Positions 1,688 to 33,942 of a stretch of DNA of 64,000 bases are shown piece after piece. The stretch is from assembly GCA_027310725.1 (NCBI GenBank), contig DAIDAG010000066.1, forward strand, positions 96,828 to 160,827, in the 5' to 3' direction. The first letter of the stretch is position 1; each line of letters begins with the position of its first letter. This DNA is from Sideroxydans sp. (GTDB lineage: Bacteria > Pseudomonadota > Gammaproteobacteria > Burkholderiales > Gallionellaceae). Position numbers and translations under genes: made by a program. The notes below the pieces were generated by a model. The model saw only the letters and a list, made by a program, of their open reading frames with translations, searched no databases and had not been told where the DNA came from.

Positions 1688-2044
1688 ATGACGATGCAAA
1701 GCCTGCGCGAGATGCTTGAAGCAGCCGCGCGATATTCCGCTGAGCAGACTGCTGAGAACCGTGCCATTGAGCAGGAGAAGGCAAAGAACAGGAAAACGCG
1801 TCCGACGGCTGCTGAGAGTCGCGCGCGACGCGCCCGCAAGGCCGCTCTTGATCCTGCACTTTGCTCGACGTGTCAAAAAGAACCGAAATACAAGACCAAG
1901 GCTGGTGTGTCCTATGGGACGCAGTGCTACACATGCATTACCAAACAGCGGCTGGAGCGGGAAGCAAAAAACAAGAAACCGGGTTCTAAAGAAAAACCAG
2001 CCGGTACCAAGAACAACAAACATTTCGAGAGTGCGACATGCTGA
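1688..2044 (+). CDS. Basic hypothetical protein with CxxC...CxxC zinc-finger-like motif
   Basis: CSTC...CYTC, K/R-rich; overlaps the start of the next gene. Confidence 0.55.
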   Translation: MTMQSLREMLEAAARYSAEQTAENRAIEQEKAKNRKTRPTAAESRARRARKAALDPALCSTCQKEPKYKTKAGVSYGTQCYTCITKQRLEREAKNKKPGSKEKPAGTKNNKHFESATC

Positions 2045-16652: not shown

Positions 16653-17462
16653 ATGGCAGTCAAAAACGGCAACATGTTTGGCAAGGGTGGTAAGGGTTTC
16701 GATCAACACATCAAGCACGATCTGTTGACCGGTCGCATGTTTACCCAGGGCGTCATCGAAAACCAACTGAAGGCTCTGCGTCAGGAACTGAATGTCGAGT
16801 CCAAAGCATCCATGAAGGATCCGGTCTCGTATGCCATCCGCAAGGCACTGGCTGCGCAAGGCGTCCAACCGATCGATTCCGTGAGCGGTCATTTCGTGGG
16901 TTGTAAGGTCAGCGAGCGCGAAGCAGGCGATGGTGTGGCACGCGAAGCAGCTCTCCGCTTGCAGGATGCGGACAGCGGCGACATCGATACCGTGGTTCTG
17001 AACCTGAACAGCGGCGCCGGCCAGATGGCTATCCAGAAGCTGAAACACGTCGCTCCCGGCGAGCAGATCACGCTGAAGCTATTTTCCAGCGTGTCGGAAC
17101 CGGTGGAAGAAGGCGGCAAGACTTTCGTCAACCACTACGGTGCCATCAACCGCGCCGACGGTTCCAAAGTTACGCTGGACGACGATGCGAAAGTGAAGGC
17201 GCTGAACAAGCAACTGACCGATGAGCGCAACGCTTTGACGGCGAAGAAGGCATCCAAGGAACTGGTGAGCGCAACCATCAATTCCATCAAGGTCAATGCC
17301 GCTCTGGATACCGCCAAGGGAGTTGAAGCCAAGGTGGCCAACTTCAAGCTGAATGGTCATCCGCCTGCAACCAACGAGGCGTTCAGCGAGCAGGATACCG
17401 AGTTCGGTGATGCAGGTTTCGACAACGGCGGCGCCGGCAAGTCTGCGGCACCCAAAGCCTAA
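16653..17462 (+). CDS. Hypothetical protein with acidic C-terminal region
   Basis: Strong RBS GAGGAG, own operator and terminator, biased codon usage. Confidence 0.8.
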   Translation: MAVKNGNMFGKGGKGFDQHIKHDLLTGRMFTQGVIENQLKALRQELNVESKASMKDPVSYAIRKALAAQGVQPIDSVSGHFVGCKVSEREAGDGVAREAALRLQDADSGDIDTVVLNLNSGAGQMAIQKLKHVAPGEQITLKLFSSVSEPVEEGGKTFVNHYGAINRADGSKVTLDDDAKVKALNKQLTDERNALTAKKASKELVSATINSIKVNAALDTAKGVEAKVANFKLNGHPPATNEAFSEQDTEFGDAGFDNGGAGKSAAPKA

Positions 17463-17589: not shown

Positions 17590-19167
17590 ATGGCGATCAG
17601 CTACGCAAAAGAGACATTTGACGACGAGCCTGCTGCCGTCAAACCAGCTCCATTGGTTAACTACATGCCTGAACAAAAGGCGATCATCGAGTCTCGTGAG
17701 CCTTCGATCAAGGTTTCAGCCTTTGCGGGTACGGGAAAGACGACCACTCTGGTCGGATATGCCAATAACCGCCGGAATGACAGCATGATCTACTTGGCTT
17801 TCAATAAAGCCATTCAGGAAGAAGCGGCGCGGAAATTCACCGGCAATGTCGAATGCCGCACCACGCACTCGATCGCCTACCAGGCGATGAACGTGCAGGA
17901 AAAGTATCTCAAGAAATTGTCTTTCGGTCTCAAGCCGTTCGACCTTGCCAAGCCGTTCGATGCGACCTACATCGATGCGGCGAATGCGATCCAGATCCTC
18001 AACAATTTCACATCCAGCGCCGATAGCCAGATCAGCGAGATCAATGCCATTGCGGCAAATATCAAGCCCGGCATGCGTCCCAGAGCCATTGCGCTGGCAA
18101 AGGAAGCATGGAAGCACATGATCGATCCTGACACCGACAAGGTGCCCATGACGCACGATGGCTACCTGAAACTGTTCCAGTTGTCCGGCAAGGCCATCGC
18201 CAAGAGAAATGGCGAGTTGTACAAGACCGTCCTGTTCGACGAGGCTCAGGATGCCAACCCGGTCACGACAGCGATGGTTATGGGACTGTCGGCCAACAAG
18301 GTTTTCGTTGGCGATCGCCACCAGTCGATTTATGCCTTCCGTGGCGCCAAGAATGCGATGGAGATGATGACGGGAATCGCTGAATACCCGTTGTTTTCCT
18401 CGTTCCGGTTTGGTCAGCGCGTCGCAGACGCGGCCAATATCATCCTGGGTTATACCCTGGGAGAGGAAAAGCACAGCCTGCGTGGGCTTGGCGGGCAATC
18501 GCGAGTCACCGGCGGCGGGAACGCCGCGCGCCACAGCGGCCAGATTGCGAAACTTGCGAGGACGAATGGCACGATCCTCGACATGACGGCTGAATGCATG
18601 GAGTCGAACGTGCCCTTCTACATTGTCGGGGGCACGGACTCGCTCAAGCTGAACCTGGTCATGGACACCTTCTATTTGTTCGCGAACCAGAAAGATCGGA
18701 TTGTCAACGCCCAGATCAAGCAGTTCGACAGCTTCGACGAGATGATGACATTGAGCGAAGAATCCGACGATCCCGAGTACAAGGCCATTTGCAAGGTCGT
18801 TAATCGCCACGAAGACAATACGCCCGTGTTGGTTGATTCTGTGAAGAAGGCGTGCCTGCCTTCTGCAAAGAAGGCTACTGTGGTTTTCTCGACCGCGCAC
18901 CGCAGCAAGGGACTGGAGTTCGATGCCGTGCAGCTACTCGACGACTTCACTTCGCTGACCCTGAATTCGCAGGACGAAGGCGTCGATATTCAGGAAGGCA
19001 ACCTGATTTATGTCGCCATGACGCGTGCGAAGAACACGCTTTATTTGAACGAGGATCTGGCAAATTTCCTTGAATGTCCGTCCCGCAACATCTTGCTTGA
19101 TGAGGCGGTCGGCATTAATGACCGCCTGCGCGGGGAAGTCAAGAAGGCCGTTTCGTTCAGCATCTGA
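17590..19167 (+). CDS. UvrD-like SF1 3'-5' DNA helicase
   Basis: AFAGTGKTT, YLAFNK, DEAQD, VGDRHQSIYAFRGA, SFRFG, STAHRSKGLEFD, YVAMTRA. Confidence 0.92.
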   Translation: MAISYAKETFDDEPAAVKPAPLVNYMPEQKAIIESREPSIKVSAFAGTGKTTTLVGYANNRRNDSMIYLAFNKAIQEEAARKFTGNVECRTTHSIAYQAMNVQEKYLKKLSFGLKPFDLAKPFDATYIDAANAIQILNNFTSSADSQISEINAIAANIKPGMRPRAIALAKEAWKHMIDPDTDKVPMTHDGYLKLFQLSGKAIAKRNGELYKTVLFDEAQDANPVTTAMVMGLSANKVFVGDRHQSIYAFRGAKNAMEMMTGIAEYPLFSSFRFGQRVADAANIILGYTLGEEKHSLRGLGGQSRVTGGGNAARHSGQIAKLARTNGTILDMTAECMESNVPFYIVGGTDSLKLNLVMDTFYLFANQKDRIVNAQIKQFDSFDEMMTLSEESDDPEYKAICKVVNRHEDNTPVLVDSVKKACLPSAKKATVVFSTAHRSKGLEFDAVQLLDDFTSLTLNSQDEGVDIQEGNLIYVAMTRAKNTLYLNEDLANFLECPSRNILLDEAVGINDRLRGEVKKAVSFSI

Positions 19168-19226
19168 TAAACGTGACAAGGTTTTCAAATTGAAGATCGC
19201 AAATCACAACATTTACTGGAGTAACA

Positions 19227-19505
19227 ATGGAAATTACCACGCGATGCGTTGTAGAACCAGATGAGCCTGTTGCAAAGGAATATGCGTTCGATTGCAAGTT
19301 GATTGCGGCATTGCGCGTCAAGGCGAAATCGCAGAAAGAGGCGGAGGTAATGCTCCGTGAAGTTCTGGATGCCGCAAGCTGCAATGCAGGTTGTTGGTCA
19401 GACGGAAGTCCTGTTTTATTCGAGGCGAGTCTTGATGGTGAACCGCCCCTGTTCGAAGTGGATGGAGAACCAGAAAACAGGACAGCTAAATCTCTCAAGA
19501 TGTAA
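19227..19505 (+). CDS. Hypothetical protein
   Basis: RBS GGAG, 92 aa. Confidence 0.65.
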   Translation: MEITTRCVVEPDEPVAKEYAFDCKLIAALRVKAKSQKEAEVMLREVLDAASCNAGCWSDGSPVLFEASLDGEPPLFEVDGEPENRTAKSLKM

Positions 19506-19537
19506 CAGGTTCCAAATCTGTAAGCAAAGGGGATGTC

Positions 19538-22500
19538 ATGGTACCGGACAAAAAAATGATGCAATGGGTAAGGTTGAACAAAGGCAACGCGGTCATGCTC
19601 AAGATCGAAATGCCGGACGCTTCATTCGTGATCGGCGTGGACGGCCTGCGGCCTGCCGATCCTGAATGGCAGAAGCTGGTGTCGATTTTGAATTTCCGCC
19701 CGTCGGCATCCGGGCGGCTACTGTTGCGCGCCGGCGTGGTCGTGCTGCGCGAGATCCGCGAGGTCTTTCCAAACGTCAAGGTTGATGAGAACTATCCGGT
19801 TGACCAGATATTCGTGATGCGCAGCAAGGTGGTGAACCGCGCTGTCATTCCGGATACGCAAGCCTCCATTCTCATCGGCAAGAACTATCTCGGCCAGGAC
19901 GTGTTCGTCACGGCCACTGGTGCGCGTTACATCGCCGGCAAGGATGGGACGCCCGTATCTGAAGAAAGCATCTCAGTCGCGCCGGCATTCCTGCGCGCCA
20001 AGGCCGAAGGAGACATTGATCTGTGCGCGGACGGGTTTGTCCTGCGCATGCTTGGCGAGAACCTGCGCCCCGAGGATCTGCGCAAGTTCTGCGCAATCAT
20101 CCACGGCGAGGATGAACCCGTGGAAGAGACTGATGGACGCCTGCGCGAAGTACAAGAGGCCGTTGAAGCCGCTATATTACGCAACATCCTGCGTGAATTT
20201 GCCGAACATGGGGACATTAAGCGCTCGTATGCACGCGCCAGCATGCTGTTAGGGCATCAGCCTACGTTTGCCTTCAGAACCTCTCAATCGATCGCATTGC
20301 AGCAGTATTCGACGCCATCTACGCTGTCCCTGGCGGTGCAAAACATTCTGGGCGATGTCAACGGACTGAATTTGCTGGAACCGACCATCGGTAACGCATC
20401 GCTGGTTTCGCTGTTGCGCGGCGCGAACATCACCGGAATCGAGATCGACGAAAACCGGGTTCGCCGGACGCGCAAGATGCTGTCCGAAACCGATACGTTC
20501 GGAGAGTCGAAGATCGCCGTGCATCATGCAGATTTCACTGAGTCTGACGTAATTCCCGATGGCTACGATGTGATCGTATCCAATCCGCCCTTTGGCGGGC
20601 TGGACAAGCCGTATGTGAAGGGCGGAATGAAGGTAACGCGTATTGACCAGGAGATCGTCCTGAAGTCGCTGGACTCGCGCAAAGCCAATGGCAAATCGGT
20701 ATTCATTATCAGCGCCGACCACGACAACATCTTCAAAGAGAAAGAAGGCATGGTTCTGGACGGTTCCAAGAATCTGTTCAATTGGCTGTCCGACCATTAT
20801 GAGCTGCAGGCGTTTGAAGTCAGCGGCAACCTGTACAAGAAGCAGGGCGCCGGGTATCCGGTGCGAGTGCTGATCGTGGGAAGAAAGCGTACTCAGGCCG
20901 AGGCCGAGGATGCGCGCAAGACCAAAAAATATCGCATCGACAAGTTGCCCGTCGTCAAATCGCATGACGAACTGTGGGCACAGTCCGAAGTAATGAAGTC
21001 CTTTCTTGCTCAGTCCGTTCCTTTGCTGGCGGAAAATGATGCAAGTAATAAACTTGCAGATAATACGAAGCAGGACGTTCTCAATACGCCGGCTGATACT
21101 ACCAGCGAAGAGAGCACGATCTTCGGGAACGAATATCAGGCTCAGTATGAACCCATGTCCAGCGGTGAAACAACCGCGATGATCCCCAAGAATCTGGTTG
21201 TGCCGCAGTCCATCGCTTTCAACAGATTCATCGAAGAGAACGGCGACGCTGAGGATTTTGTGCGCGCCGAGCTGGAGATTGACGATCTGGAAGCCGTCGC
21301 GCCGGGGGCACCCGAGCAGATCGACGCCATTGCGCTCGCCATTTGGAACATGAAGCGCGGTCGCGCCCTGATTCTGGCCGATCAGACAGGGATGGGGAAG
21401 GGGCGTGTGTTGGCCGCAGCGGCGAGATGGTCGGTACTGAACAACCGCCCCGTCATCTTCCTAACAGAAAAAGCCAGTCTGTTTTCCGACTTCTGGCGCG
21501 ATGTCCGCGACATCGGTAGCGAAAGCGTCTTTACACCGTTCATCTTGAATGAAGACACGGACATCCTGTCAACGGACGGAGACAGCAAGCAGGAAGTGCT
21601 CATCCCGCGTACCAGCAAGGCGACCCGCAAGCGCGTAATCGATAGCGGCGGTAGCCTGGCTGACGAAGGTTTCAATCTGATGATGGCGACCTACTCTCAA
21701 TTTAATCGCGACGAGTCGTCTTCTGCCAAGGCACGATTCATCAAAGACGTGTCCGCCGGCGCCATGATCATCCTTGATGAATCGCATAACGCAGCAGGCG
21801 ATTCAAACACCGGGCGCAATATTGCGCAGGCGGTGCAGATGTCGCATGCGGCGGTGTATTCGTCCGCAACATTTTCCAAGGATGCAACCAACATGGGGGT
21901 GTACTACAAGGCATTCCCGACCACCGTGGACATGGCAACGCTCACGAGCACGCTGCGCGCCGGCGGTGAGCCGTTGCAAGAGGTTCTGTCGTCGATGTTG
22001 TGCGAGGACGGCGTTCTTGTGCGCCGGGAGCATGATCTTTCGAACCTGAAATTCAGCACGATCCCGATTAGCGACGAGATATTGAAGCGAAATATTCGCG
22101 TATCCGACCAGGTCTCCGATGTGTTGTCCATGATGGCCTATTTGTCCGGTGACATCGAGAAAATCGCCAAAACGGAGAACAAGAAGGTTGCTGAAGCAAT
22201 GAAGAACATGAGCAACGAGGTTCGTGAGGGCAAGCGCATGGGCGTGTCCTATACGAATTTCGGTTCTCGGCTCTATACCATTTCGCGTCAGGTCGCGCTG
22301 ACGCTGACAATGGATTCTGTGATCAATGACGCGTTGGAGGGCTTAAAGGAAGGTAAAAAGCCCGTCATTGTGCTTGAGCAGACAATGGAGTCGATCATGT
22401 CGTCACAGCGCGATCTTGAAGCGGATCCGCTGGAAGAGTTCGCGCTTGGCGCCGTAGCGCAGCAACGATTGACGATCAATGGTTTGCTGCACCGAGTTCT

Positions 22501-24652
22501 CGACAAATTGACGGTCGTCAACAGAAACAACGGCTACGGCGTCGTAGAACAGGTGAATGCGTACACGATTTCCGAGGACAAGAATCAACGCAAGGCGCTG
22601 TCAGAATTCATTGAGGCGATCGAAACCAAGATCGATGCGATCGAGCACATGACGATCATGCCGCTTGACCAGATTCGTGCCGCGCTACGCAAGGAAGGCT
22701 ATACCTCTGGCGAGGTGTCGGGGCGTAGCGCCATCTACCATTTCAATGAAGACGGTACCGTTCAGAAGGAAGAGCGCAAGAACGATACCGCGACTAAATT
22801 GGCGGAAATCTTCCGGTTCAACAGTGGTGAACACGACGAAGTCGTTGTTACCCGGTCGGGCTGCACCGGTATCTCAATGCACGCTTCCTCCAAATTTGCT
22901 GATCGCAGGCAGCGCAGGCTAATTGAGGCGCAAATCGCGAACAACGTGGCGGAGCGAGTGCAGTTCTTTGGGCGCGTCAACCGTCGCGGCCAGGTTTCGT
23001 CCCCCGAGATCCGGTCGGCGACCTCCGGCATGCCGTGGGAGAACAGGCTGCTTGCCATGCAGAACATGAAGATGCGCAAGCTGACGGCAAACGTGCAGTC
23101 CAATCGCAATTCGGCTGCGGAGATGAAAGGTATTCCGGACATCCTGAACGAGGTTGGCGAGCTGGTATGCAAGGAATTCCTTTCCACCAATCCGGAGATC
23201 ATGATCCGTCTTGCGATCGACCCGGACGGCAGCGAAAACTCGCAGGCCGAGTTCTATTTCGCCAACAAGCTGACCGGGCGTATGTCCCTGTTGCCATATG
23301 TCGAGCAGGTGAGGATCTACGACGAACTGACCAAGGAATACCAGCGCGTATTCGCCGATCTCACCAATAAGGGGATCAATCCTCTGGAATCGCGCTTGCT
23401 CGATGTCAAGGCGGAAGTCGTCAAGCGCTACGAGATACTGCCCGGCGTTGAGGGCGGCAGTGCGCTGGACGCCCCCGTGTTCGCCGAGAAGATCGAATGG
23501 ATTGAGAAAATCGATCCGATCCGCAGCGCGGGGGTGGTCGAGTTGGTGGGCAAGTCGATCGAGCGCCTGGTCGCCTCGGAAAAATCATTGTTCAAGTTGC
23601 ACACCGGCTCCGTCAGGCACGATTTCATGTCGCGCCGCGAGGTGAAGGGATTTTCAGTCATTGACTGTTCCGCAATCGTCAAGAAGGCAAGGCAGCTCTA
23701 CACCGAGGCGATGATCAAATCCGTACCGGAAAGATTCACCAACCCGGATAGCCCGATGGATGGGGTAGCGGCGGCGCTGGCCGACAAGGACATGAACGCG
23801 GTGAAGCGCGTCAACAGCCGCATGACGTGGTTCAGTGCTCATGTCGAGCATTTGATGCCCGGGGATGTCATCGAGGTGACGGTAGATGATGAGAAGACCC
23901 GCGCCGTGATCACCCATCTGCTGCCGCCGGAAGAAGGCAAGGAACACCATCTTGGGCAGTGGGAGATCCGCGTCCTTCCGGTGGGTGCACAGTATCCGGT
24001 CATCATGTCCTACAACTCTCTGATTGAGGACGAGAACTATGCGCCTCTGAGGGATTCCCACAAGGCCGTGGTGCGCGAGTTCGACGCGGCGCCAGCCGGC
24101 GAACTGACTTTCTCCAAGTGGACTTTGACAGGAAACTTGTTCCGCGCTTCCGAGATGGCCGCAACGAGCCACGTTGGCCGCGCGGGCATCTACACCACAA
24201 AGGACGGCGCGCGCCATCGCGCCATCCTTTGCCGTGCCCGCGTCGATCTGGACTCCCTGATGACGATGGAAGTAGCGCTTTCGTCCGCCGATGCCCTTGA
24301 GTTCATCGAGACATTGATCGCCGACGAGCGGGAAGGCTCAGTCAGCCTGGCGAATGACATCAAGTTGTCCTGGCGCGGCCACGGAGCGCAAATGACGATC
24401 TCGACCCCGGGCACAAAAATGGGCGGCGGGCAGGTCTTCCTGAACGAGAAGCTGCTGAAGTTCACCGGCGAGTTCAGCGGATCTCGGAAGGTGATGACGG
24501 CAACGTTCGAGCGTCCCCGTCGCATGACGAACTTCATTGAAGCCATCTATGACACGGGCTGCACCTTCAAGATGAAGGTCGAGAACGTGAAGCGTGCCGC
24601 AGACGACTCCAAGAGCGGGGCAGTTCAGATCAACCGAAAATTTGGGACTTAA
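19538..24652 (+). CDS. Adenine methyltransferase / Strawberry-notch-type SF2 helicase fusion (DarB-like polyvalent protein)
   Basis: QQYSTP, LEPTIGNASL, NPPFG, then ADQTGMGKGR, TYSQ, ILDESHNA, YSSATF, TGISMHAS, QFFGRVNRRGQ. Confidence 0.88.
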   Translation: MVPDKKMMQWVRLNKGNAVMLKIEMPDASFVIGVDGLRPADPEWQKLVSILNFRPSASGRLLLRAGVVVLREIREVFPNVKVDENYPVDQIFVMRSKVVNRAVIPDTQASILIGKNYLGQDVFVTATGARYIAGKDGTPVSEESISVAPAFLRAKAEGDIDLCADGFVLRMLGENLRPEDLRKFCAIIHGEDEPVEETDGRLREVQEAVEAAILRNILREFAEHGDIKRSYARASMLLGHQPTFAFRTSQSIALQQYSTPSTLSLAVQNILGDVNGLNLLEPTIGNASLVSLLRGANITGIEIDENRVRRTRKMLSETDTFGESKIAVHHADFTESDVIPDGYDVIVSNPPFGGLDKPYVKGGMKVTRIDQEIVLKSLDSRKANGKSVFIISADHDNIFKEKEGMVLDGSKNLFNWLSDHYELQAFEVSGNLYKKQGAGYPVRVLIVGRKRTQAEAEDARKTKKYRIDKLPVVKSHDELWAQSEVMKSFLAQSVPLLAENDASNKLADNTKQDVLNTPADTTSEESTIFGNEYQAQYEPMSSGETTAMIPKNLVVPQSIAFNRFIEENGDAEDFVRAELEIDDLEAVAPGAPEQIDAIALAIWNMKRGRALILADQTGMGKGRVLAAAARWSVLNNRPVIFLTEKASLFSDFWRDVRDIGSESVFTPFILNEDTDILSTDGDSKQEVLIPRTSKATRKRVIDSGGSLADEGFNLMMATYSQFNRDESSSAKARFIKDVSAGAMIILDESHNAAGDSNTGRNIAQAVQMSHAAVYSSATFSKDATNMGVYYKAFPTTVDMATLTSTLRAGGEPLQEVLSSMLCEDGVLVRREHDLSNLKFSTIPISDEILKRNIRVSDQVSDVLSMMAYLSGDIEKIAKTENKKVAEAMKNMSNEVREGKRMGVSYTNFGSRLYTISRQVALTLTMDSVINDALEGLKEGKKPVIVLEQTMESIMSSQRDLEADPLEEFALGAVAQQRLTINGLLHRVLDKLTVVNRNNGYGVVEQVNAYTISEDKNQRKALSEFIEAIETKIDAIEHMTIMPLDQIRAALRKEGYTSGEVSGRSAIYHFNEDGTVQKEERKNDTATKLAEIFRFNSGEHDEVVVTRSGCTGISMHASSKFADRRQRRLIEAQIANNVAERVQFFGRVNRRGQVSSPEIRSATSGMPWENRLLAMQNMKMRKLTANVQSNRNSAAEMKGIPDILNEVGELVCKEFLSTNPEIMIRLAIDPDGSENSQAEFYFANKLTGRMSLLPYVEQVRIYDELTKEYQRVFADLTNKGINPLESRLLDVKAEVVKRYEILPGVEGGSALDAPVFAEKIEWIEKIDPIRSAGVVELVGKSIERLVASEKSLFKLHTGSVRHDFMSRREVKGFSVIDCSAIVKKARQLYTEAMIKSVPERFTNPDSPMDGVAAALADKDMNAVKRVNSRMTWFSAHVEHLMPGDVIEVTVDDEKTRAVITHLLPPEEGKEHHLGQWEIRVLPVGAQYPVIMSYNSLIEDENYAPLRDSHKAVVREFDAAPAGELTFSKWTLTGNLFRASEMAATSHVGRAGIYTTKDGARHRAILCRARVDLDSLMTMEVALSSADALEFIETLIADEREGSVSLANDIKLSWRGHGAQMTISTPGTKMGGGQVFLNEKLLKFTGEFSGSRKVMTATFERPRRMTNFIEAIYDTGCTFKMKVENVKRAADDSKSGAVQINRKFGT

Positions 24653-24829
24653 TGAAAGGGAAATGATGAAGATCACTTTGACTGATGCCAATGGCAATAC
24701 TTCCGGGTTGCAGTGTCAATGAGGAACAGCAAGCCAAATTTCCTGCCCGACAGGATCTGATTCGTTTCATCGAGAGCACTGATAGCCCAGCCGCTTCCTC
24801 CGCGATGCGGATTTGACAAGGAGAGTCGT

Positions 24830-25388
24830 GATGGCGCAAACCGTATACACCGGCGAAAGCTATGTGATCAAAACCGAATTCAGCGGCCTGAACGTAATTA
24901 TTGAGCGCGTAGCCGATGGAAAGGATGTTCTTCTTCAGGGTGATGATGCGACTCAGTTCTTGACCGAGTATGACAACTGTCATGGTGACGACAAGCTGCT
25001 TCAGATTGTGTGCTCTGCTTATGACGAGGTGATGACTGAAAGGCGCTCTGGCGTCAATTCAGTTCTGTTGGTGCCAACGCTGGGTGAAACCATCCGGTGC
25101 ATGAAGGACGAAATTTTGTCCGATGTGCGCGCCGGTAAAGTTCCGGCTGATGTCAAATCGTTCAGCGAGCTTCACGACTATGTGGATGCCAATGAGTATG
25201 GTGGTTTTTGCAAAGAAGCATTTTCAGCCGCGTTGATCAATCACTTCGGCGGTCGCGATGAGAATGAGGGTATGCCAGATGGCATGATGAATTACACGAA
25301 CGATGCACAGAATGCCATTAACCAGTGGATCAAAGCTGGCGGAATTTCTGAGCAGCTTAAGGCGATTCCATCCGCGATGAAGATGTAA
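24830..25388 (+). CDS. Hypothetical protein
   Basis: RBS AGGAG before GTG/ATG near 24828-24833; contains SFSELHDYVDANEYGG. Confidence 0.7.
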
Positions 25389-25412
25389 AACTGAATTTCG
25401 CCGGGAGTAAAT

Positions 25413-26165
25413 ATGAGCAAAATGATCGTTGGAGCTGGTGCGTTCAAAGTGGTGAGTAATGATCGATTTGAACGGTTATTCAATTCCGCCGCAGCAACTC
25501 TTGGTGAATATCCAGGCGTATTGTCCAACAAAATTCTTTTCGGGCAGATCAAGCAAAGTGTTATTGCGAAATACGCTTTCCCGGACACAGGTAATGACCA
25601 GATCGACTTTGAGTGTTTGAGAGATGCCATCGAAGGACACATCATCAATTTTAAGGACAGTGAAGTGCTTGGACTTGATCAGGTTGGCTCTGTTATCCAG
25701 TGGAATGCCCATGAACTAGCCGCTTACATTAGCGGTGAAAAGCTTGAAGAATTCGGAATCGACAACCTCTCAGAAGTCGAGCGCATTCGGGTTGGCCTTC
25801 AGCCTTCGGTTGGCAACACGATTCCTGCTGGCGTTACCATACTGACATCTTGCGAATTCGGAGAGGTGTTCAGTGCAAATATACGGCACAAATCAGGTAA
25901 TCTGGGCAGTATGACAAAACGTAATCGTTTGGAAATTCGTAAAATCGACAAGTCTTTCCAGGTATTTTTGATCGAGCGGCGTTATGACAATTTGAAGGAA
26001 GAGGAACCAAAGGATGTTCGCCTGCAGCAAGAAGGCACATTCGAGAATATTGGTAAAGCTGCCGAGTTTGTAGGCCAGTATATTTCCGACTATCAGGGTG
26101 CAGTAATAGATGATCATGCCGAGGCTGTTGAAGTCGAGGCCTCATCAAATAAGATGAGGATGTAA
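25413..26165 (+). CDS. Hypothetical protein
   Basis: RBS GGGAG, 250 aa. Confidence 0.7.
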   Translation: MSKMIVGAGAFKVVSNDRFERLFNSAAATLGEYPGVLSNKILFGQIKQSVIAKYAFPDTGNDQIDFECLRDAIEGHIINFKDSEVLGLDQVGSVIQWNAHELAAYISGEKLEEFGIDNLSEVERIRVGLQPSVGNTIPAGVTILTSCEFGEVFSANIRHKSGNLGSMTKRNRLEIRKIDKSFQVFLIERRYDNLKEEEPKDVRLQQEGTFENIGKAAEFVGQYISDYQGAVIDDHAEAVEVEASSNKMRM

Positions 26166-26219
26166 TCCGAATAAACAAAGAGCGACCTGGTGGCGAGCTA
26201 ACAAAGGAAGGAACAACAC

Positions 26220-26675
26220 ATGAATCAACGGGATTTGATCTTGAATCACTTGTGTTCAAGGATTTTTGAACGCAATGATTTTGAAAGCGCGGAAGCATTG
26301 ATCGATGCGATCAATATGGCATCGTCTATTCCTTCCGAAACACAGTGGAGGAAGCGCAAGGATGCATTCAACCAGATAGGCGAGAAAGCCCCAATGAAGA
26401 ATGGCGGCTATTGCCTGACCTATGAGGAAGTGCCGTCATTTCTGAATACGGAAACAGACGCTTTCGTAGAGGCAATGAAAAGCGAGGCCGCATCCAAACA
26501 AATGGTGGGGGCGACAGTCAAGTCACCTGAGAGCCTGCAGCAGCCACACAGGTTTTCGAGCGTGGTTCGTAATGACACCAAAGCGCACCTCGCGGTTTTT
26601 CGTGATAGCCGTTCAGCCAGCCAGGCGGGTGATCAGGTGCGCGAACACCTTGGCATGAAGCCTAGCGCGAAGTAG
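26220..26675 (+). CDS. Hypothetical protein
   Basis: RBS AAGGA, 151 aa. Confidence 0.65.
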   Translation: MNQRDLILNHLCSRIFERNDFESAEALIDAINMASSIPSETQWRKRKDAFNQIGEKAPMKNGGYCLTYEEVPSFLNTETDAFVEAMKSEAASKQMVGATVKSPESLQQPHRFSSVVRNDTKAHLAVFRDSRSASQAGDQVREHLGMKPSAK

Positions 26676-26777
26676 GAGTGAACCATGCCGTAGGTATTGG
26701 CTAAATTGGAGCCTAATGGGCAATCTGCCCCAGGCTGTTGGTGTAGAATTCGCAGCTATTTTTGATAGGAGAACGAT

Positions 26778-26981
26778 GTGGAAGCTGGACTGAGAATCAA
26801 GATGGATAATGCAGCATTCGAGGATGATCCCGGCGAACTTGCAAGAATTCTGCGGGATCTGGCCGACAAGGTCGAGAACGGCGTCACCGATGGTGACCAG
26901 TTCGTGGCGCGAGACATCAACGGCAACAAGGTCGGATCTCTGGAGATCGTGGCCGAGCCGCGTGCCGCGCACAAGATGTAA
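26778..26981 (+). CDS. Small phage/plasmid hypothetical protein
   Basis: RBS AGGAG; DNAAF...ELARILR.LA...RDINGNKVG. Confidence 0.65.
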   Translation: MEAGLRIKMDNAAFEDDPGELARILRDLADKVENGVTDGDQFVARDINGNKVGSLEIVAEPRAAHKM

Positions 26982-27014
26982 GCGTCAAAGGCCTAATCAT
27001 TTGGGGAATTAGTT

Positions 27015-27650
27015 ATGGAAGCTAAATTAGATGCCGATCTAAATGCCGGGAATGCTTCTTTGCGCAATGCTGTTGGTGAAATTATTCATCGAATAAGCAA
27101 ATCATTGCCAGACATCAGGGAACCAATCAAGATGTACCTTGCTGGTGGCGTGGCAGTGAATTTCTATACTGGCTATCGAGCAACCGATGATGTCGATGCA
27201 TCGTTTTCGCACAAAATCATTTTGCCTAATGCCAACGAGCTGGTTGTCTCATACGATGACGAGAACGGCAAGCACAAAATGGTGTACTTCGATATGAACT
27301 ACAACCCGACTTTCGCTTTGATGCACCCTGATTTTGAGAAAGATGCTGCATTGGTCGAGGGAAATGAGTTTAAGGACGACAAAATCAAGTTGTATATCTT
27401 GTCCCCTGTTGATCTGGCGCTTAGTAAAGTTTCAAGATTAGAGGGTAACGACAGAGAAGACATAGCCGAGCTTGCAAAACGCAAATTAATTTCGTCGAAA
27501 GAACTGGAAGAACGTGCAGAGGAAGCACTTTCATATTATATTGGCAATCAAGCGATGTTGAGAGTGAACATTCAGGACGTGCTGGAGGTCATAGAGACGG
27601 TACAGCAGGGCTTGAATCATGGCATAAATGGAAAAGGATATGGGCGCTAA
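27015..27650 (+). CDS. Nucleotidyltransferase-fold protein (DUF6036/AbiEii-like)
   Basis: YLAGGVAV..Y...RATDDVD, LSPVDLALSK..R....DREDI. Confidence 0.75.
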   Translation: MEAKLDADLNAGNASLRNAVGEIIHRISKSLPDIREPIKMYLAGGVAVNFYTGYRATDDVDASFSHKIILPNANELVVSYDDENGKHKMVYFDMNYNPTFALMHPDFEKDAALVEGNEFKDDKIKLYILSPVDLALSKVSRLEGNDREDIAELAKRKLISSKELEERAEEALSYYIGNQAMLRVNIQDVLEVIETVQQGLNHGINGKGYGR

Positions 27651-27990
27651 TCCGTTTAACAAACAACAATTCAATGCCTACCGGGATTGGGAGCAATCCT
27701 TGGTGGAGTTTTTTGTGCGCGAAGCAAAAAAGCCGAACATGGTGAATTGGTTATCAATGGTCAATGGCGCGGACTCGCCGAGGTCAGTAGCGTATTCGGC
27801 CTTGCTTTTATCTAACCTTGTTAGCAGCAAGCCGAACTATACGGAATCTGCCAAGGCGTTATATTCCGTCTATGAGAGGCTTACTGAGCAAAGAGGCAAC
27901 GCCTCCGAATTTGAAGAATGGCTGCACTCTGATTGGCTGAACGTATCGCGAGTGGCAAATATGTTCAAGGCCGAATTGATGCACCACTAA
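27628..27990 (+). CDS. Hypothetical protein overlapping the NTase gene (possible partner)
   Basis: Overlapping ORF with the same AT-richer composition. Confidence 0.6.
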   Translation: MEKDMGANPFNKQQFNAYRDWEQSLVEFFVREAKKPNMVNWLSMVNGADSPRSVAYSALLLSNLVSSKPNYTESAKALYSVYERLTEQRGNASEFEEWLHSDWLNVSRVANMFKAELMHH

Positions 27991-28140
27991 TTTTTTTCCA
28001 TAACACTGGATTCTCGCCTATCCCACTAAGTTGCGCAAAATCGCAAACTGAATTAAATGGTTGGCCTGGATAGTCAAATTTTCAAGTAACATCTAGTCGT
28101 CCTTCTACCTCTTCCAGCGATATAAATTTCTTCGCACGCC

Positions 28141-28191
28141 TTGTCCGAAAAAAACGTCGGTGCTATAGTTGGTGCATAATTACTACTTGCA
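28141..28191 (+). promoter_or_regulatory. Sigma70-like promoter with downstream TGCA-N11-TGCA operator
   Basis: TTGTCC-N17-TATAGT (28141-28169) with extended -10 TG; operator TGCAtaattactactTGCA at 28173-28191. Confidence 0.65.
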
Positions 28192-28203
28192 CTAATTATA
28201 CGC

Positions 28204-29721
28204 ATGAGACTGTTTGTTGCAGAAAAACCTGATGTAGCAAGAGAGCTTGCAGCGTTTATCGGCAAGCGCAATAAGGCATCCCCCAAAAAAGAGGCTCGGT
28301 ACATTGAAGTAGGAGACACAATCGTAACCTGGGCGCGCGGGCATCTGCTTGAACAGGGAGAGGTCGATGACTACTTCCTCGACGTTCCCAGGACGAAAGA
28401 AAATTCCAGCCGTGGCCGTCTCTACTGGCAGCACGTGCCGTTACCCATTCTCCCCAAAAAGTTCTTGTACGTCCCCTCAAAAGAGGATTCCGACCGCTCC
28501 GCGCAACTCAAGGAAATCGGCAGGCTGATGAAGTCGGCCACTGATATCTTCAACGCCGCCGACCGTGACCGGGAAGGGCAACTGATCTTCGACGAGATCA
28601 TTGAGCATTTCGGAATTTCAGGAAAACCGATCAAGCGGCTGATCTTCTCGTCATTGGACGATGCGGCGCTGGAACGCGCGTTCAACAGCGCGGTAGATAA
28701 CAAAACGCCCGGCATCTTCAACATGGGTCTTGCGGCAAAGACGCGTGGGCAGGCCGACTGGCTAATTGGCATGAACGGCACCCGCGCCATGACGCTGGCA
28801 CACGTAACGCCGGCCAAGGGCGCCGGCTCCCTGAATGTTGGCCGCGCGATGACGCCGACGATGTCGGTTGTAGTGCGCCGTCACCTAGAGATTCTGAATT
28901 TCAAATCCTCCGCCTTTTACGTGCCAATGGTGGAGCTGCCCGATGGCACTGTTCTGGAGTGGAAAAAGCGCCTGGACGAAAGCGACACCAAAGGGCTGGA
29001 CGCCAACGGCAAGATCATCGATCGTGCGCTGGCCGAGCGTATCGTCAAGGCGATCAACGACGGTCTGGAAGGGGAAATTACCGAGGCCAAGTCCACCGAA
29101 AGGCGGGAGGAGCCACCGCTGCCGTTCTCCCTGCCGTCAATACAGTCCGAACTGTCCAAGAAATACGGGCTGACCGTAGAAGAGATCACGGAGGCGTGTC
29201 AGTCGCTCTACCAGAAGAAAATGCAAACCTATGTCGGTACCGATTGTCCATACTTGCCGGAGGCGATGCATGGAGAGGCATCGGATGTGCTGAACGGGCT
29301 AAAGGCGATGTTCGGCAAGGCCGTGAGCGGCACGAACGTAACGCGCAAGTATGGCTGCTGGAATGACAAAAAGCTGTCCGGCGAAGGCGGTGCCGCCCAC
29401 CACGGGATCATTCCGACCGGAATTAAGGGGTCAATCAGCTCGGAAGCAGAGCGGCTTGTGTACCAAGCCGTGTGCAACCGCTATATCGCTCAGTTCTATC
29501 CAGAACACCGTTACCTGGCGATTTCGCTCAAGGCAGCGTTTGGCGGTGCAACCGGTGACGAGTTCAACGCAACCGCCAAGGCGGTAATCTCAAACGGCTG
29601 GAAAGACGTGGAGGGAGAAGGCGATACGAACGAGGATCGAACCACAGACAATGATCGCACGGCGCCGGACAGCAAAGCTGGCGCGCAAAAACCGTCCGAT
29701 ATGGGCGGACGCAAAGGATGA
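28204..29721 (+). CDS. topB: DNA topoisomerase III, N-terminal part (TOPRIM plus catalytic Tyr region)
   Basis: AEKP, TWARGHL, AADRDREG, ADWLIGMNGTRA, VGRAMTPT, PPLPFSL, AQ-equivalent CQSLYQKK..TYVGTD, AHHGIIPT; ends before the GT..TR motif. Confidence 0.88.
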   Translation: MRLFVAEKPDVARELAAFIGKRNKASPKKEARYIEVGDTIVTWARGHLLEQGEVDDYFLDVPRTKENSSRGRLYWQHVPLPILPKKFLYVPSKEDSDRSAQLKEIGRLMKSATDIFNAADRDREGQLIFDEIIEHFGISGKPIKRLIFSSLDDAALERAFNSAVDNKTPGIFNMGLAAKTRGQADWLIGMNGTRAMTLAHVTPAKGAGSLNVGRAMTPTMSVVVRRHLEILNFKSSAFYVPMVELPDGTVLEWKKRLDESDTKGLDANGKIIDRALAERIVKAINDGLEGEITEAKSTERREEPPLPFSLPSIQSELSKKYGLTVEEITEACQSLYQKKMQTYVGTDCPYLPEAMHGEASDVLNGLKAMFGKAVSGTNVTRKYGCWNDKKLSGEGGAAHHGIIPTGIKGSISSEAERLVYQAVCNRYIAQFYPEHRYLAISLKAAFGGATGDEFNATAKAVISNGWKDVEGEGDTNEDRTTDNDRTAPDSKAGAQKPSDMGGRKG

Positions 29722-30086
29722 CCGATATGTTGTTGGCGACGGAAACGCCGTTCATCGGCAGGAAGAAGGGTGCGTTTGCAGGGGTACGGAACCGGGTTTT
29801 GCTGAGTCAGCAGCAGGAACGGATGACCCAGATCGCAGCTTTGATCGAAGCTGCCGTATCGAAGTTGGGGCACGATCCCATTGCGGTCAGCGATTTGATC
29901 GAAATTTCTAAAAAAGTGACGTACATGCTTGGGGCGATGAACGACATCATGGAAAGCGGTCGTTCTGGGGAGATCCACACAACTGATTTTGATGATGAAA
30001 ATTTGGACGCTTTTTTGAAAAACACATCAATTATTGCATCGATAATCGAATCACATTTACATAGACCCAAGGACGGTCAATCATGA
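29718..30086 (+). CDS. Hypothetical protein
   Basis: ATGA overlap with topB-N. Confidence 0.65.
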   Translation: MTDMLLATETPFIGRKKGAFAGVRNRVLLSQQQERMTQIAALIEAAVSKLGHDPIAVSDLIEISKKVTYMLGAMNDIMESGRSGEIHTTDFDDENLDAFLKNTSIIASIIESHLHRPKDGQS

Positions 30087-30310
30087 AATCAACGATGAAT
30101 TTTCTCAGGGTGCAAGTGGACACCGTCTTCGACCACGCGACCGCAGAACTTCAAGCCGGCAAGCAAATGCTGCAAAACGCTGCGCTGGCCGGACAATCGG
30201 CGATGAGCAGCTTTGTGGCCGATTTATCGATGAGCCGCAATAACATCGGCACCGCCATCGTTCGCTCTGCCGAAAAGCCCATCGATGACCGTCTGAAGTT
30301 GAGGGGATGA
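30083..30310 (+). CDS. Small hypothetical protein
   Basis: ATGA overlaps at both ends. Confidence 0.55.
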   Translation: MKSTMNFLRVQVDTVFDHATAELQAGKQMLQNAALAGQSAMSSFVADLSMSRNNIGTAIVRSAEKPIDDRLKLRG

Positions 30311-31185
30311 TGACTGCGATACCGAACGATCCGCTTGCACCGGATACCGTCATCCGTTACCTGATGCTGGATTTGACCAGCGGGACGGAGTTTTTCTGGA
30401 TGTCGGCCAAGGATATGTATGTGAAAGCCAAGACACCTGCGAACGCCCCGATGGCGCCGTTATCTCCTCCCTTGCTGCGCGACGCGCTAACCGTCAATCC
30501 TGACGCGATGCGCTGGGCACTCAATCGGCTGACCGAAAAGACCCCCCGTATTCTGTTCTTCGATTCGGTTGCCGATGCGGCGAGCCGCGATGGTGTTGCC
30601 AGCATCCTGGCCGCGCCGGCGCCGGCGGAATGGACGCTCTCAGCCCGAGTGAAGCTGCAACAGGCCATGTTGTACGCATTGAATTACGCCAGCACGATCA
30701 TTGAGCAGCATGATTGGCGTATTGCCGACACGATACTGATTCGGGCAAGCATCCCGGGGCTTGATTTCAAACATGCCGTGGAAATCGTAACCGGGAAAAC
30801 GCTTGCCGATTACACAGCGGCGATCGAGAGCTATATTACGGATGTCAGAGACCACGATAGCGATTACCTCGGATTCTGCAATAGCGCGCTGGCCGTGCAT
30901 GACCCTGCGGTAAAAATGCCGGCGTTCGACATCCATAACGCCTACGAGGCGCTGCTATTCCTCGCAAGAAACGATTATCAGGTCGCAACAAAGGACATGA
31001 TCACTCATCGCGATATTCAGTCCGGGCTAAAAAAGTCCGGGGCGGGGGCGGAGTTTATCTTGACGCCAGCCATGAATAGACCGCTGGCCGACATCGAGAA
31101 AAATTCGTTCAAGATCGACGGCAGGATATTTAATGCCTCTACGGACGGCGTGACCAATGGAATGACGGTGGAAGGCGTTCACTGA
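30307..31185 (+). CDS. Hypothetical protein
   Basis: 292 aa, translationally coupled. Confidence 0.7.
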   Translation: MMTAIPNDPLAPDTVIRYLMLDLTSGTEFFWMSAKDMYVKAKTPANAPMAPLSPPLLRDALTVNPDAMRWALNRLTEKTPRILFFDSVADAASRDGVASILAAPAPAEWTLSARVKLQQAMLYALNYASTIIEQHDWRIADTILIRASIPGLDFKHAVEIVTGKTLADYTAAIESYITDVRDHDSDYLGFCNSALAVHDPAVKMPAFDIHNAYEALLFLARNDYQVATKDMITHRDIQSGLKKSGAGAEFILTPAMNRPLADIEKNSFKIDGRIFNASTDGVTNGMTVEGVH

Positions 31186-31187
31186 AG

Positions 31188-31925
31188 ATGGCAAATGCAC
31201 TCGACATCAGCAAGTTCGAAGTGGGAAGCGCGGTGCGCGGGCGAGCCTACGTGCGCGAAGGGAAGACGGTTCCTCCGCGCTACTTTGTCGAGGGTGACCT
31301 GATCCTGATCATGGATGACATCGGGCGCTACGCGAACATTGGTAAGGAGGATGCGGCAATCCTGCGCGAGAAGAACAGCACGGGCAGCGGCAAAGCCGGG
31401 ATCGGCACGGCCAGAACGCGCGGCGAGGTCATCAAGAAGTTGTTCGATGACGGGTTCTTGTACAAGGAAAAGGCCAAGGGCAAGAAATCGCCGATCGTGA
31501 TGCCTAGCGAGAAGAGCATCGCCCTCTACGAAAAGTTGTCGCAATGCGGCACTGCCAAGGTGCTGATTTCACCGGAGATGACGGCGAAGTGGGAAACCGG
31601 ACTGACGATGATCGAGCGCGGGGAGATCACGCCAGCTCAGTTCATGGATCAACTGTATAAGTTCATCATGCAGTTGACGACGGACATGACAGCCAATCCA
31701 ACCAACCCGTATTTCGGCAAGCCGCGCGCAGCCGCCGGCGACGGTACGGTCAAATCCAATTGCGACGAAAAGCATCCGAAGGACGGTCAGTTGTGCGACA
31801 AGTGCAAGGACGGTCAGTTGCTCACAATGAAGGTGGTCAAAAAGGAAAGCTCCGCGTTCGGCAAGCTGTACGTGAAGTGCGATAACAAGAAGTGCGATTA
31901 CTTTGGAGAGTTCATCAAACTATGA
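31188..31925 (+). CDS. topB: DNA topoisomerase III, C-terminal part with zinc ribbon
   Basis: KTVPPRYFVEGDL, GIGTARTRGEVIKKL, SPEMTAKWE..L..IE.G, CDKC...CDNKKCDY. Confidence 0.85.
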   Translation: MANALDISKFEVGSAVRGRAYVREGKTVPPRYFVEGDLILIMDDIGRYANIGKEDAAILREKNSTGSGKAGIGTARTRGEVIKKLFDDGFLYKEKAKGKKSPIVMPSEKSIALYEKLSQCGTAKVLISPEMTAKWETGLTMIERGEITPAQFMDQLYKFIMQLTTDMTANPTNPYFGKPRAAAGDGTVKSNCDEKHPKDGQLCDKCKDGQLLTMKVVKKESSAFGKLYVKCDNKKCDYFGEFIKL

Positions 31926-32389
31926 GCCAAAATGCGCAAAACGGTCAGGGCGACAACTCAGCGAACAGCGCAGTAGCTGTTGCCGAGAAGTGCATGTTCA
32001 GACCAACGATTGAAGAAATCATGGCTGAAATTTTTGCAAAATACAATTTTGCATTAGACAGCAATCCTATTTTGCCATCGGAGGTCTTTGCGGCTGATTC
32101 TTTCCTGCCGTTGTTTTCGTCTATTGCGATCAGCCGTGCTGAAAGCATCTTCGGTTTCCCGTTCTATATCGAGGAAATCGAAGACGAAAATGCACTGTTC
32201 GGCATGACGATTGCCCCCGAGTTTCCGTCCGCTGCGCCATTCCTGATCTACACGCTGCAGATGATGAATGTGGCGACGGATATTTTCGGGAGGGTTCCCT
32301 GCAAGATCGAGCTGGATGAGCTGTATGCATGGGCGACCAGCCGCGAATTGCAAGAGGCCGGGCTTCCATATTTGGGTATCAAACACTGA
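31922..32389 (+). CDS. IcmS-like type IVB adaptor/chaperone
   Basis: F.L....I...EVF....FLP, G......E.ENALFG and C-terminal LDELY align by eye with Legionella IcmS as I recall it (FYLN...DEVFSETGLLP...EGALLG...LDELMY). Confidence 0.6.
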   Translation: MSQNAQNGQGDNSANSAVAVAEKCMFRPTIEEIMAEIFAKYNFALDSNPILPSEVFAADSFLPLFSSIAISRAESIFGFPFYIEEIEDENALFGMTIAPEFPSAAPFLIYTLQMMNVATDIFGRVPCKIELDELYAWATSRELQEAGLPYLGIKH

Positions 32390-32401
32390 ACGGAGAGGAT
32401 C

Positions 32402-32953
32402 ATGATCAACTATGCGAAAGAAACTTTTGACGATGAATCGACAAGCAATAAGGCGGTATCGATTCGCGAATTGATGAACGGGGTCATGGCTACTGAAGAC
32501 GCGATGGAACAGCGGGAAGAGACACCCGCACCTCACGCGAAATACGTGCCGTATCTCAAGCCTGCGAAGAAGCGCACTGCTACGCCCGTCGAGCAGACCA
32601 CAGATGCCCCGTTGCCTGTCGCAAATGATCTGGTTTCGCAAGCGAAGGCGCGCTTGTCCGCGCTTGTTCAGCGCCGGGACCAGGCTACCGGCGACACCGT
32701 TTACTTGGAGCGCGATTCCGAGCGCGCTGTACTGCGTGACACGGGTTCGAAGATCTGCGTTACCGAGGACAAACCCTCTGACGAAGATATTCTGCTGATG
32801 CTGGTTGCCGCGCAGGAAAAGTTTGGCGACAAGTTCAAGGTGTTCGGTACTGACGAATTTGTCGAGCGTTGTTCGCGCATCGCATTGATGCATGATATAA
32901 AAATGCAGAATACGCAGCGCGAAACAACGTCCCGCAGCCCGAAGGTTTCCTGA
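32402..32953 (+). CDS. LPD7-like domain protein
   Basis: LRDTGSKI.V...DEDI...L..AQEKFG....V.GT.EF. Confidence 0.65.
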   Translation: MINYAKETFDDESTSNKAVSIRELMNGVMATEDAMEQREETPAPHAKYVPYLKPAKKRTATPVEQTTDAPLPVANDLVSQAKARLSALVQRRDQATGDTVYLERDSERAVLRDTGSKICVTEDKPSDEDILLMLVAAQEKFGDKFKVFGTDEFVERCSRIALMHDIKMQNTQRETTSRSPKVS

Positions 32954-32961: not shown

Positions 32962-33942
32962 GTGATCATGGCAGAGCACGCAAAACTGGTGCCACCGACA
33001 GCACCTCAAGCGGTGGTGATCAACGACCACCGACGGGTCATGTCGGCTCTCAAGGCATCTTCTCCGATCATCCAGGCAATGATCGTTGCCCCGGGAAGCA
33101 ATGCGGATGCCGGAATGCGTGCGGCGGCTATTTCGGACATGGTCAAGGCCTCTCACGTTGCCGCCGAATGCATGATCGATACGCTCGCGCCGGACTTGAA
33201 AGGCAAGGGATGGGCCAGATCCGATGCGTTTCTGTTCTGCGCCGGCGTCATCGCCGAAGAATGGAAGGCAACGAAGAATATCGGCCTGGCTACTTCTATC
33301 ATTGACGAAGAGCTGCTGGGGCAAATGCAGGCATCCGTCCTCGGATCCGATTCCAAGGCGCTGAACTGGATGGACAGAGTAAACGAATATCCGCCCATCA
33401 TTGATCATTGCGATGCGGCAACCAGGTTGCGCATGAGCCTGATGAAGGCGTCTACCCCGATGGTCATGGAGATCAACCGTTTTGCCTTCTGGCAAAACGC
33501 GGAGAAGCGCACCCAGTTCATCGAGAGCATGGTCAGCAATATCAGCGAACTGGCCGCGAGTCACGCCAACGAGATGGCCGACAAGTTTGCCATGAGTCCC
33601 GAGGATCGGATCAGCTTATGGCAAGGCGACTTGCAGCGCGTTTTTGTGTTCGCGATAGAAGAGTACCGTTGCGTCGCGCAGATCGCGACCAGCAATGTCG
33701 AGGCAATTGCCAAAGATACGATCGACGAAAGTCTGGTCAGGAACGAGCAGGTCACCTGGTTCAGAAAAGCTGCGTCGGGCGAGATCCAACGCGACATCCT
33801 GAGCAAAGTCACCTCCAATTTCGCCATTCTGGATGGTGTCGCCAATCGCCTCGCCATGACGATGGCTGGCGCCCAGAACCGCAATTCGGCCAGTGCCGAA
33901 GCCCGTTCAATCGAGAATCAGGAGGTATCGCATCATGCGTAA
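32962..33942 (+). CDS. Hypothetical helical protein
   Basis: RBS AGGAG, 326 aa, in the transfer operon. Confidence 0.7.
   Translation: MIMAEHAKLVPPTAPQAVVINDHRRVMSALKASSPIIQAMIVAPGSNADAGMRAAAISDMVKASHVAAECMIDTLAPDLKGKGWARSDAFLFCAGVIAEEWKATKNIGLATSIIDEELLGQMQASVLGSDSKALNWMDRVNEYPPIIDHCDAATRLRMSLMKASTPMVMEINRFAFWQNAEKRTQFIESMVSNISELAASHANEMADKFAMSPEDRISLWQGDLQRVFVFAIEEYRCVAQIATSNVEAIAKDTIDESLVRNEQVTWFRKAASGEIQRDILSKVTSNFAILDGVANRLAMTMAGAQNRNSASAEARSIENQEVSHHA

Follow-up and report, generated by a model that had tools for sequence, protein, structure and literature searches.

Two unrelated proteins encoded by one conjugative element begin with the same nine residues. The element lies on a 64,000-nucleotide stretch of a Sideroxydans sp. 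genome (contig DAIDAG010000066.1, positions 96,828 to 160,827; this whole stretch is called the window below), and the proteins are a UvrD-like helicase and a stand-alone LPD7 protein. The 9-mer YAKETFDDE is common to their N termini, at 17602-17628 and 32411-32437, where the helicase open reading frame (ORF; 17590-19167) starts MAISYAKETFDDE and the LPD7 ORF (32402-32953) starts MINYAKETFDDE. This shared tag is real, exceeds chance, and recurs on nonhomologous proteins. Judged from sequence, it is also broader than first seen but looser, with lineage-matched forms on both of the unrelated protein families of this rare type IVB element.

The coordinates and the peptide are exactly as reported in a first-pass annotation of this DNA, as are the six of nine shared codons that differ silently. 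Within the window, the peptide is matched at nine of nine residues at these two positions only, the runner-up reaching 5/9, and in a six-frame scan of the 3.03-Mb genome the two tag sites score 59 and 57, with the third-best place at 32. By chance, the opening 20 residues of the 90 element ORFs would be expected to yield 6e-6 shared 9-mers, a figure that rises to 1.5e-5 if a tail-like composition is assumed. In a genome-wide control for shared 9-mers, over a set without the LPD7 ORF, the sole other pair was a Rossmann motif. The claim that the two carriers are unrelated is borne out as well: BLASTP finds no likeness between helicase and LPD7 protein outside the tag, and a profile-profile comparison, at a probability of 0.25%, adds none.

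What has been conserved here, the peptide or the DNA? Identity between the two genes is 26/33 nucleotides across the tag, 12/30 in the upstream flank, and 9/30 in the downstream flank, and no DNA homology was found in the flanks of the two tags. Across 11 codons (the Ile codon and one differing residue included), there are six silent changes and one amino acid change; under neutral change, the probability of at least six of seven changes being silent is 0.00015-0.0015, for stretch boundaries set post hoc. Independent codons would give 4.7 silent differences, and the silent sites look saturated, as expected for a peptide that was fixed long ago and kept since. The tag sits ahead of the Pfam domains, which begin at residue 27 in the helicase and residue 96 in the LPD7 protein. 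These observations support the annotation's reading that the peptide rather than the DNA is conserved, and they point to selection on the peptide outside the folded domains. Its further proposal, that a disordered linker containing PAP follows both tags, survives only literally: PAP is present in both proteins, at residues 19-21 in one and 42-44 in the other, and the linker after the helicase tag is only ~10 residues long. We rejected PAP as a component of the motif given the unequal spacing from the tag, its presence in 4 of the 13 proteins checked, and its absence from both orthologs in the nearest relative.

The exact peptide is local. It is invariant within 90% clusters, in 6/6 helicase members and 5/5 full-length LPD7 members (near-identical strains). 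Both tags are unchanged in the strain variants of four public runs, one of which spans part of the helicase tag; these variants are mostly 95-99% identical and thus too close to inform on constraint. A sample of 300 family genomes gave two matches, one of them generic and the other a single syntenic relative, G237, whose LPD7 cluster carries the NCBI label Gallionella sp. and whose helicase is ~71% identical. The source and G237 elements differ by a synonymous divergence (dS) of 1.2-2.2 and a nonsynonymous divergence (dN) of 0.1-0.5. In G237, the starts are MRVSHTKFNDDDF for the helicase and MIHYGNYEDKIES for the LPD7 protein; the tag words, VSHTKFNDDDF and IHYGNYEDKIE, respectively, are both in register with [VI]x[HY]xx[FY]xD. 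The pattern [IL]xYxxE.FDD, proposed in the annotation for searches of the replicon and related elements, is specific to the lineage of the source element, and the literal 9-mer, whose loss from homologs had been named in advance as a sign against a docking motif, is lacking in G237.

Wider searches returned nothing closer. In an order-level sample of 400 genomes, the 326-residue ORF that follows the LPD7 gene had no match (0/400) and the helicase had three, all generic and tailless; a class-level sample gave 1/399, a fused LPD7. Among plasmids there were distant helicases only, fused LPD7 domains only, and no match to the 326-residue ORF or to the IcmS-like ORF described below. Viral contigs held no match to the back-translated 9-mer and no relative of the LPD7 protein. 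A scan of a genome collection with the helicase alignment gave, among the matches listed, generic UvrD loci only. None of the chromosomal proteins of the source genome carries the tag.

Beyond the exact peptide, the conserved feature as we read it in the alignments is a looser N-terminal tag, roughly M-[AG]-[VI]-x4-[FY]-x-D-D, which is on both families and rare on other UvrD and LPD7 proteins. The helicase belongs to an element-specific subfamily (20 clusters, 41-72% identity) that falls within the best 120 of 1262 matches; the remaining 100 served as generic controls. Twelve of the 20 have an N-terminal tail and eight do not. For LPD7, 18 short stand-alone proteins were taken, partly by eye, from the 51 matches of a profile search and from earlier matches. 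The start classes are MGVRVS, MAVRKS, MGARAS, MALKNI, MAVKNIF, and MAIKNI for helicases and MGVRLK, MGVRLL, MGVRYAK, MGVRTS, MAIKNIDFNDG, MAVKNLNFSDDEF, MAVKNICFSDDE, and MPVKNIIFDD for LPD7 proteins. A start of the form M[AG][VIL][KR], a pattern defined post hoc, occurs in 6/20 subfamily helicases and 7/18 stand-alone LPD7 proteins, compared with 1/100 other UvrD proteins, 0/34 other LPD7-bearing proteins, and 7/1294 genome ORFs. When helicases are scored against LPD7 tags, the top 5% of 1226 background starts is reached by 8/12 tailed members (one row was added by hand), 0/8 tailless members, and 3/100 generic ones. In the reverse direction, the top 1% is reached by 7/18 stand-alone and 0/34 other LPD7-bearing proteins, and the top 5% by 11/18 and 8/34. 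The register from the mature N terminus is nearly constant: a small residue, then V or I. The source element may simply retain much of an old shared consensus, given that YAK is present in an outgroup LPD7 protein (P0165) and that the other clade has F-x-DDE.

The LPD7 protein is laid out as tag, low-complexity linker, LPD7 domain (32687-32923), and basic C-terminal tail. Its second conserved word, VSIRELMNGV, is missing from the helicase, and the NGV of that word is invariant in 4/4 close LPD7 relatives. Further short words occur in the linkers of stand-alone relatives (P0170, P0173, P0177, P0180, and P0195 among them): one group has NGV, and a second has SG[VI]R together with a word resembling DYxxLDxPxF. 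Large relaxase-like LPD7-bearing proteins (P0174, P0178, P0183, P0190, P0203, and P0209) start M[IL][IVT].{2}.GG, and these starts rank in the top 1-2% when scored against helicase tails. The tag might have arisen from the first strand of a relaxase or might imitate it.

Do the tags on the two families change together? Seven helicase/LPD7 element pairs could be assembled, two on the same DNA and five linked by equally sized longest contigs of their clusters (55169, 24388, 23353, 110015, and 26514); the same size matching recovers the two known pairs (173241; and 132267, 101277, 72246, 65072, 29050, and 26989). Start classes match in four of the five size-linked pairs, and the fifth has a tailless helicase. 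The matched helicase/LPD7 starts are MAIKNIGE/MAIKNIDF (the best), MGVRVS/MGVRTS, MAVRKS/MGVRLK, and MGARAS/MGVRLL. In a permutation test over the seven pairs, true pairs are more alike than shuffled ones (p = 0.009-0.013), and removal of both the source element and the tailless pair gives p = 0.008-0.067. The KN class forms one supported clade in the LPD7 tree, in which 1 of 18 branches is well supported and most of the order is not resolved, and it occupies one side of the helicase tree; much of the covariation thus amounts to one or two concerted shifts rather than seven. In total, these comparisons support the idea that the tags of the two families shift together by lineage, as a shared docking motif would predict. 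To this extent the docking motif proposed in the annotation stands, with a related and covarying tag on both families, although the exact 9-mer on which it was based is not conserved.

We favor a model, at a probability of roughly 0.4, in which both proteins use the N-terminal tag to dock on a single partner encoded by the element. This partner would most likely be an adaptor of the type IVB coupling complex, which would load both proteins for cotransfer with the DNA. Some kind of function for the tag is very probable. In this model, selection would maintain an N-terminal tag on two unrelated protein families of the element, and the nine identical residues would be its closest match. One binding site would read both tags, and the lineage-matched drift would reflect coevolution with that site, which is probably encoded by the element, given that the tag varies from one element lineage to the next inside a single host family. 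From time to time, brief copying from one 5' end to the other may have brought the tags back into step. The exact match itself may stem from an old short copying event, because the helicase tag aligns with its G237 ortholog only with a two-codon gap, whereas the LPD7 tag is colinear with its own; copying by itself leaves the missing amino acid drift unexplained. We speculate that the site lies on the coupling complex, on an IcmS-like neighbor, DotL, or DotN, and that the tag would work beside the basic C-terminal tail as a second export signal. Among the candidate partners named in the annotation (coupling complex/IcmS, relaxosome, primase, or clamp), the coupling complex is the one we prefer because of gene position, the basic tails that end most relatives of both families, and precedent.

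With respect to gene position, the order is a 155-residue ORF, the LPD7 gene, the 326-residue ORF, and then traW and dotA, and the LPD7 gene lies inside this icmS-like to traW-dotA run in two lineages. The 155-residue ORF precedes the LPD7 gene in G237 and at locus L102 as well. IcmS chains are its top four PDB rows, but with E values of 0.31-0.55 over ~100 residues, and a profile search, PF12608, and a fold search gave no support for an IcmS identity (model predicted local distance difference test [pLDDT] of 51; no match at a Z score of at least 5). No family was found for the 326-residue protein, which matches neither IcmW nor LvgA. Cofolding of the IcmS-like, 326-residue, and LPD7 proteins scored 0.00, but from alignments of 3-4 rows, so this score counts neither for nor against binding.

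Several results weigh against docking on a coupling-complex adaptor. The nearest relative lacks the exact peptide, and its two tags score 2-3 against each other. The Pfam families IcmS (PF12608) and IcmW (PF23130) were found in neither the source genome nor G237 (0/2), although divergent forms of IcmW or LvgA may be present. The full tag starts no other ORF of the element, though a general export signal would be expected to be commoner. Eight of the 20 subfamily helicases are tailless, one of them paired with a tagged LPD7 protein; the source element's helicase tag reaches only the top 9% against the LPD7 tags of other lineages; and the 5% level is also passed by 8/34 control LPD7-bearing proteins. 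The motifs and the 18-member LPD7 set were selected after the sequences had been seen. The pairing test without the source element gives p = 0.056-0.088, and the four pairs B-E alone give p = 0.04-0.25; kin pairs are not independent, and 5/7 pairs are linked only through equal longest-contig size. A stronger version of the idea, which we regard as rather doubtful, is a private, lineage-coded N-terminal address: a tag on unrelated cargo (helicase, LPD7 adaptor, and perhaps an SSB-like protein) would coevolve with one element-encoded receptor, selection or short gene conversion would keep the tags in step, and each element would export or assemble its own proteins only.

Could the partner belong to DNA processing instead of secretion? 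The tags might dock both proteins on a hub such as an SSB-like protein with an oligonucleotide/oligosaccharide-binding (OB) fold, or a noncanonical relaxase, and so replace covalent relaxase-helicase and relaxase-LPD7 fusions. We consider this leading alternative unlikely, though several features of the gene ahead of the helicase suit it. In both sequenced lineages, the helicase gene follows this SSB-like gene; the SSB-like product starts MAVKNG, which resembles the tag class of other lineages and lies in the top 0.16% of background; and its acidic tail FSEQDTEF (FNDGDVAF in G237) resembles the FSDDEF and FNDGKF words of other tags. The tag is on two or three proteins only, and LPD7 is usually fused to relaxases, of which family PF03432 was not found in the source genome. 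Yet that genome is 65% complete, and its assembly may be missing a relaxase. The OB-fold call comes from a model of pLDDT 39 (best Z score, 7.6; root-mean-square deviation, 3.0; 86 residues aligned), the start of the SSB-like protein has not shifted to the local YAKETFDDE form, and the LPD7 gene sits among secretion genes. The SSB-like protein has phage look-alikes, none from a named family, and two public runs hold a divergent acidic-tail allele; in G237, a RecE-like exonuclease gene lies ahead of it.

An improbable alternative is a host factor, either a protease or adaptor that reads an N-terminal degron or a replisome protein, that sets turnover or localization, with the tag varying because hosts differ. 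The near-constant register from the mature N terminus would fit, as in N-terminal recognition motifs, and the acidic-aromatic words are like SSB tails. Host factors, however, are slow to change, yet the source element and G237, from one host family, differ much in their tags, and the chromosome of the source genome encodes no tagged protein.

It is quite improbable that the identity is a relic of short gene conversion between the two 5' ends with no shared function now. Identity at nine of nine residues exceeds usual convergence, the shared form looks hybrid given the gapped helicase tag and colinear LPD7 tag, and the six silent differences are compatible with an old event (P = 0.13 given the divergence of the two lineages). 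A neutral peptide, however, would have gained amino acid changes (P <=0.0015), the flanks bear no DNA homology, and matching tags recur in other lineages; copying may account for the exact match but not for its persistence. It is highly improbable that the similar starts reflect only chance together with selection for efficient initiation of translation and for removal of Met (A-rich early codons), for although some unrelated chromosomal proteins do start M[AG][VIL][KR] (6/7 of the genome matches), this reading leaves nine identical residues (expectation, ~1e-5) and six silent codon differences unaccounted for, and the start class is tens of times commoner in the two families than in the genome.

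How does the tag compare with known systems? The C-terminal acidic tip of SSB is a short acidic-aromatic docking peptide in DNA metabolism, borne by one hub protein and dependent on its terminal Phe carboxylate. The tag is likewise short and acidic-aromatic; unlike the tip, it is N-terminal and on two different clients, and it does not have the features that define an SSB tip. Relevant to our preferred docking model are the Legionella Dot/Icm signals read by IcmSW/LvgA (FxxxLxxxK, in VpdB and SidH), also short linear motifs on unrelated proteins in a type IVB context, acidic or aromatic, and additional to a C-terminal signal; LvgA is described as reading linear motifs (PMC7251119). Here, in contrast, the setting is a conjugative element, the cargo is DNA handling, and the tag is at the extreme N terminus. 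FxxxLxxxK is in neither tag, and of the adaptors, IcmW and LvgA were not identified here and IcmS only weakly. The N-terminal, IcmSW-dependent NLuc signal provides precedent for the placement (PMC10100965); as described there, it relies on helix shape more than on sequence, unlike the tag here.

Helicases and LPD proteins are predicted to be cotransferred by conjugative elements (PMC5512222). The polyvalent/LPD elements of that account resemble this one in their LPD domains, superfamily 1 (SF1) and SNF2-type helicases, methylase-helicase fusions, and predicted recipient entry with the DNA, but in the present element LPD7 and UvrD occur as separate proteins that have a peptide in common instead of being fused. 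In the passages of that paper covered, no N-terminal tag is described as shared, and its main text does not contain the string LPD7 (supplements were outside the scope). LPD7 is mentioned in PMC13627098 by annotation only. As portrayed in the F/pED208 "conjutome" account, SSB and the Sog primase are transferred, signals can be multiple, and N-terminal signals are "of unspecified sequence characteristics" (PMC11288057); such substrates resemble our putative cargo, though the signals described for them are C-terminal or internal, and the tag here is defined in sequence and matched by lineage. In the papers searched (subscription journals and supplements were outside the scope), neither the peptide nor any description of such a tag was found. 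From these comparisons, the tag seems to act in the manner of a short linear motif for docking or secretion, outside the FxxxLxxxK and SSB-tip classes.

How do conjugation machines choose their protein cargo? The question is open, and so far the N-terminal signals described for it are unspecified in sequence. A tag of 9-12 residues that is found on two unrelated proteins and varies naturally among lineages would lend itself to swaps of tag against receptor. It would offer a first handle on the role of stand-alone LPD7 proteins, and it would provide a small example from nature of a motif that evolves in concert in unrelated genes.

Table 1. Features of the tagged genes and their element (window coordinates)
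Feature	Position	Strand	Basis or remark
Helicase N-terminal tag, MAISYAKETFDDE	17590..17628	+	Shine-Dalgarno-like GGGGAG upstream; ortholog start at same place
UvrD/Rep-type SF1 helicase, 525 residues	17590..19167	+	Pfam PF00580, PF13361
Stand-alone LPD7 protein tag, MINYAKETFDDE	32402..32437	+	Shared 9-mer at 32411-32437
Stand-alone LPD7 protein, 183 residues	32402..32953	+	PF18821, E 6.6e-12
Second conserved word of LPD7 protein, VSIRELMNGV	32456..32485	+	Alignment of close relatives
Possible IcmS-like protein, 155 residues (weak candidate partner), directly upstream of LPD7 gene	31922..32389	+	PDB rows
326-residue protein (candidate partner), after LPD7 gene in three element lineages	32962..33942	+	Gene order
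Predicted OB-fold, SSB-like protein with acidic tail, upstream of helicase (candidate partner or third tagged protein)	16653..17462	+	RPA/SSB matches
DotA/TraY	36321..38453	+	TIGR04346, 246 bits (cut-off 100)
DotN/IcmJ-like coupling-complex subunit	2038..2688	+	NF038221, E 1.5e-13, 50.8 bits (below cut-off 100)

Gene content identifies the element that carries both tagged genes as conjugative and of the Dot/Icm type (type IVB). Its secretion and type IVb pilus genes occupy ~53-137 kb of the contig, a region made up of window positions 1-40000 and DNA upstream of the window, in a host genome that is 65% complete. Encoded are DotA/TraY, TraW, DotN, DotL/TrbC, DotM, DotB/C/D/G/H/I, and a DotO-like ATPase. 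DotA scores above its cut-off, as do the Pfam matches of DotC, DotD, DotH, DotI, and DotM, which places the system in the type IVB core set; the DotL/TrbC match (E 4.8e-136) is below cut-off, and DotO is a weak VirB4 match. PF03432 relaxases were found in neither of two genomes (0/2), of which the source genome is incomplete as stated, and other relaxase families were not searched genome-wide; no HUH motif was found in the element ORFs.

The element's replication module looks phage-like, with a DUF1376 initiator, an IstB/DnaC-like loader, and an antirepressor, and with no canonical relaxase detected. A tyrosine-recombinase-like ORF (L006:12822-13772, +) heads the dotI-dotH-dotG operon, divergent from dotD/C/B, and could be a recombinase-type relaxase or resolvase. 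Some element ORFs end in tails such as AMKM, KMRM, or GMKP (24813-25388, 25413-26165, and 15367-15795), a pattern typical of export signals that, defined post hoc, occurs in 8/83 element ORFs and 45/2712 others; the tails of the helicase and LPD7 protein are basic yet do not match it. The tag is missing from a 1704-residue methylase and Strawberry-notch helicase fusion (19538-24652) and also from an LPD1 protein and a phosphoribosyltransferase-like polyvalent protein (L106:6885-9569; 4504-6327, -). A type IA topoisomerase is divided into two ORFs (28204-29721 and 31188-31925) with two genes between them, and it is split likewise in G237. After dotA comes defense-like cargo (40189-59169), comprising an SNF2 helicase, DUF4391, type III restriction-modification, an Mre11/Rad50-like pair, and an OLD nuclease with UvrD (Gabija-like); G237 carries other cargo at this site.

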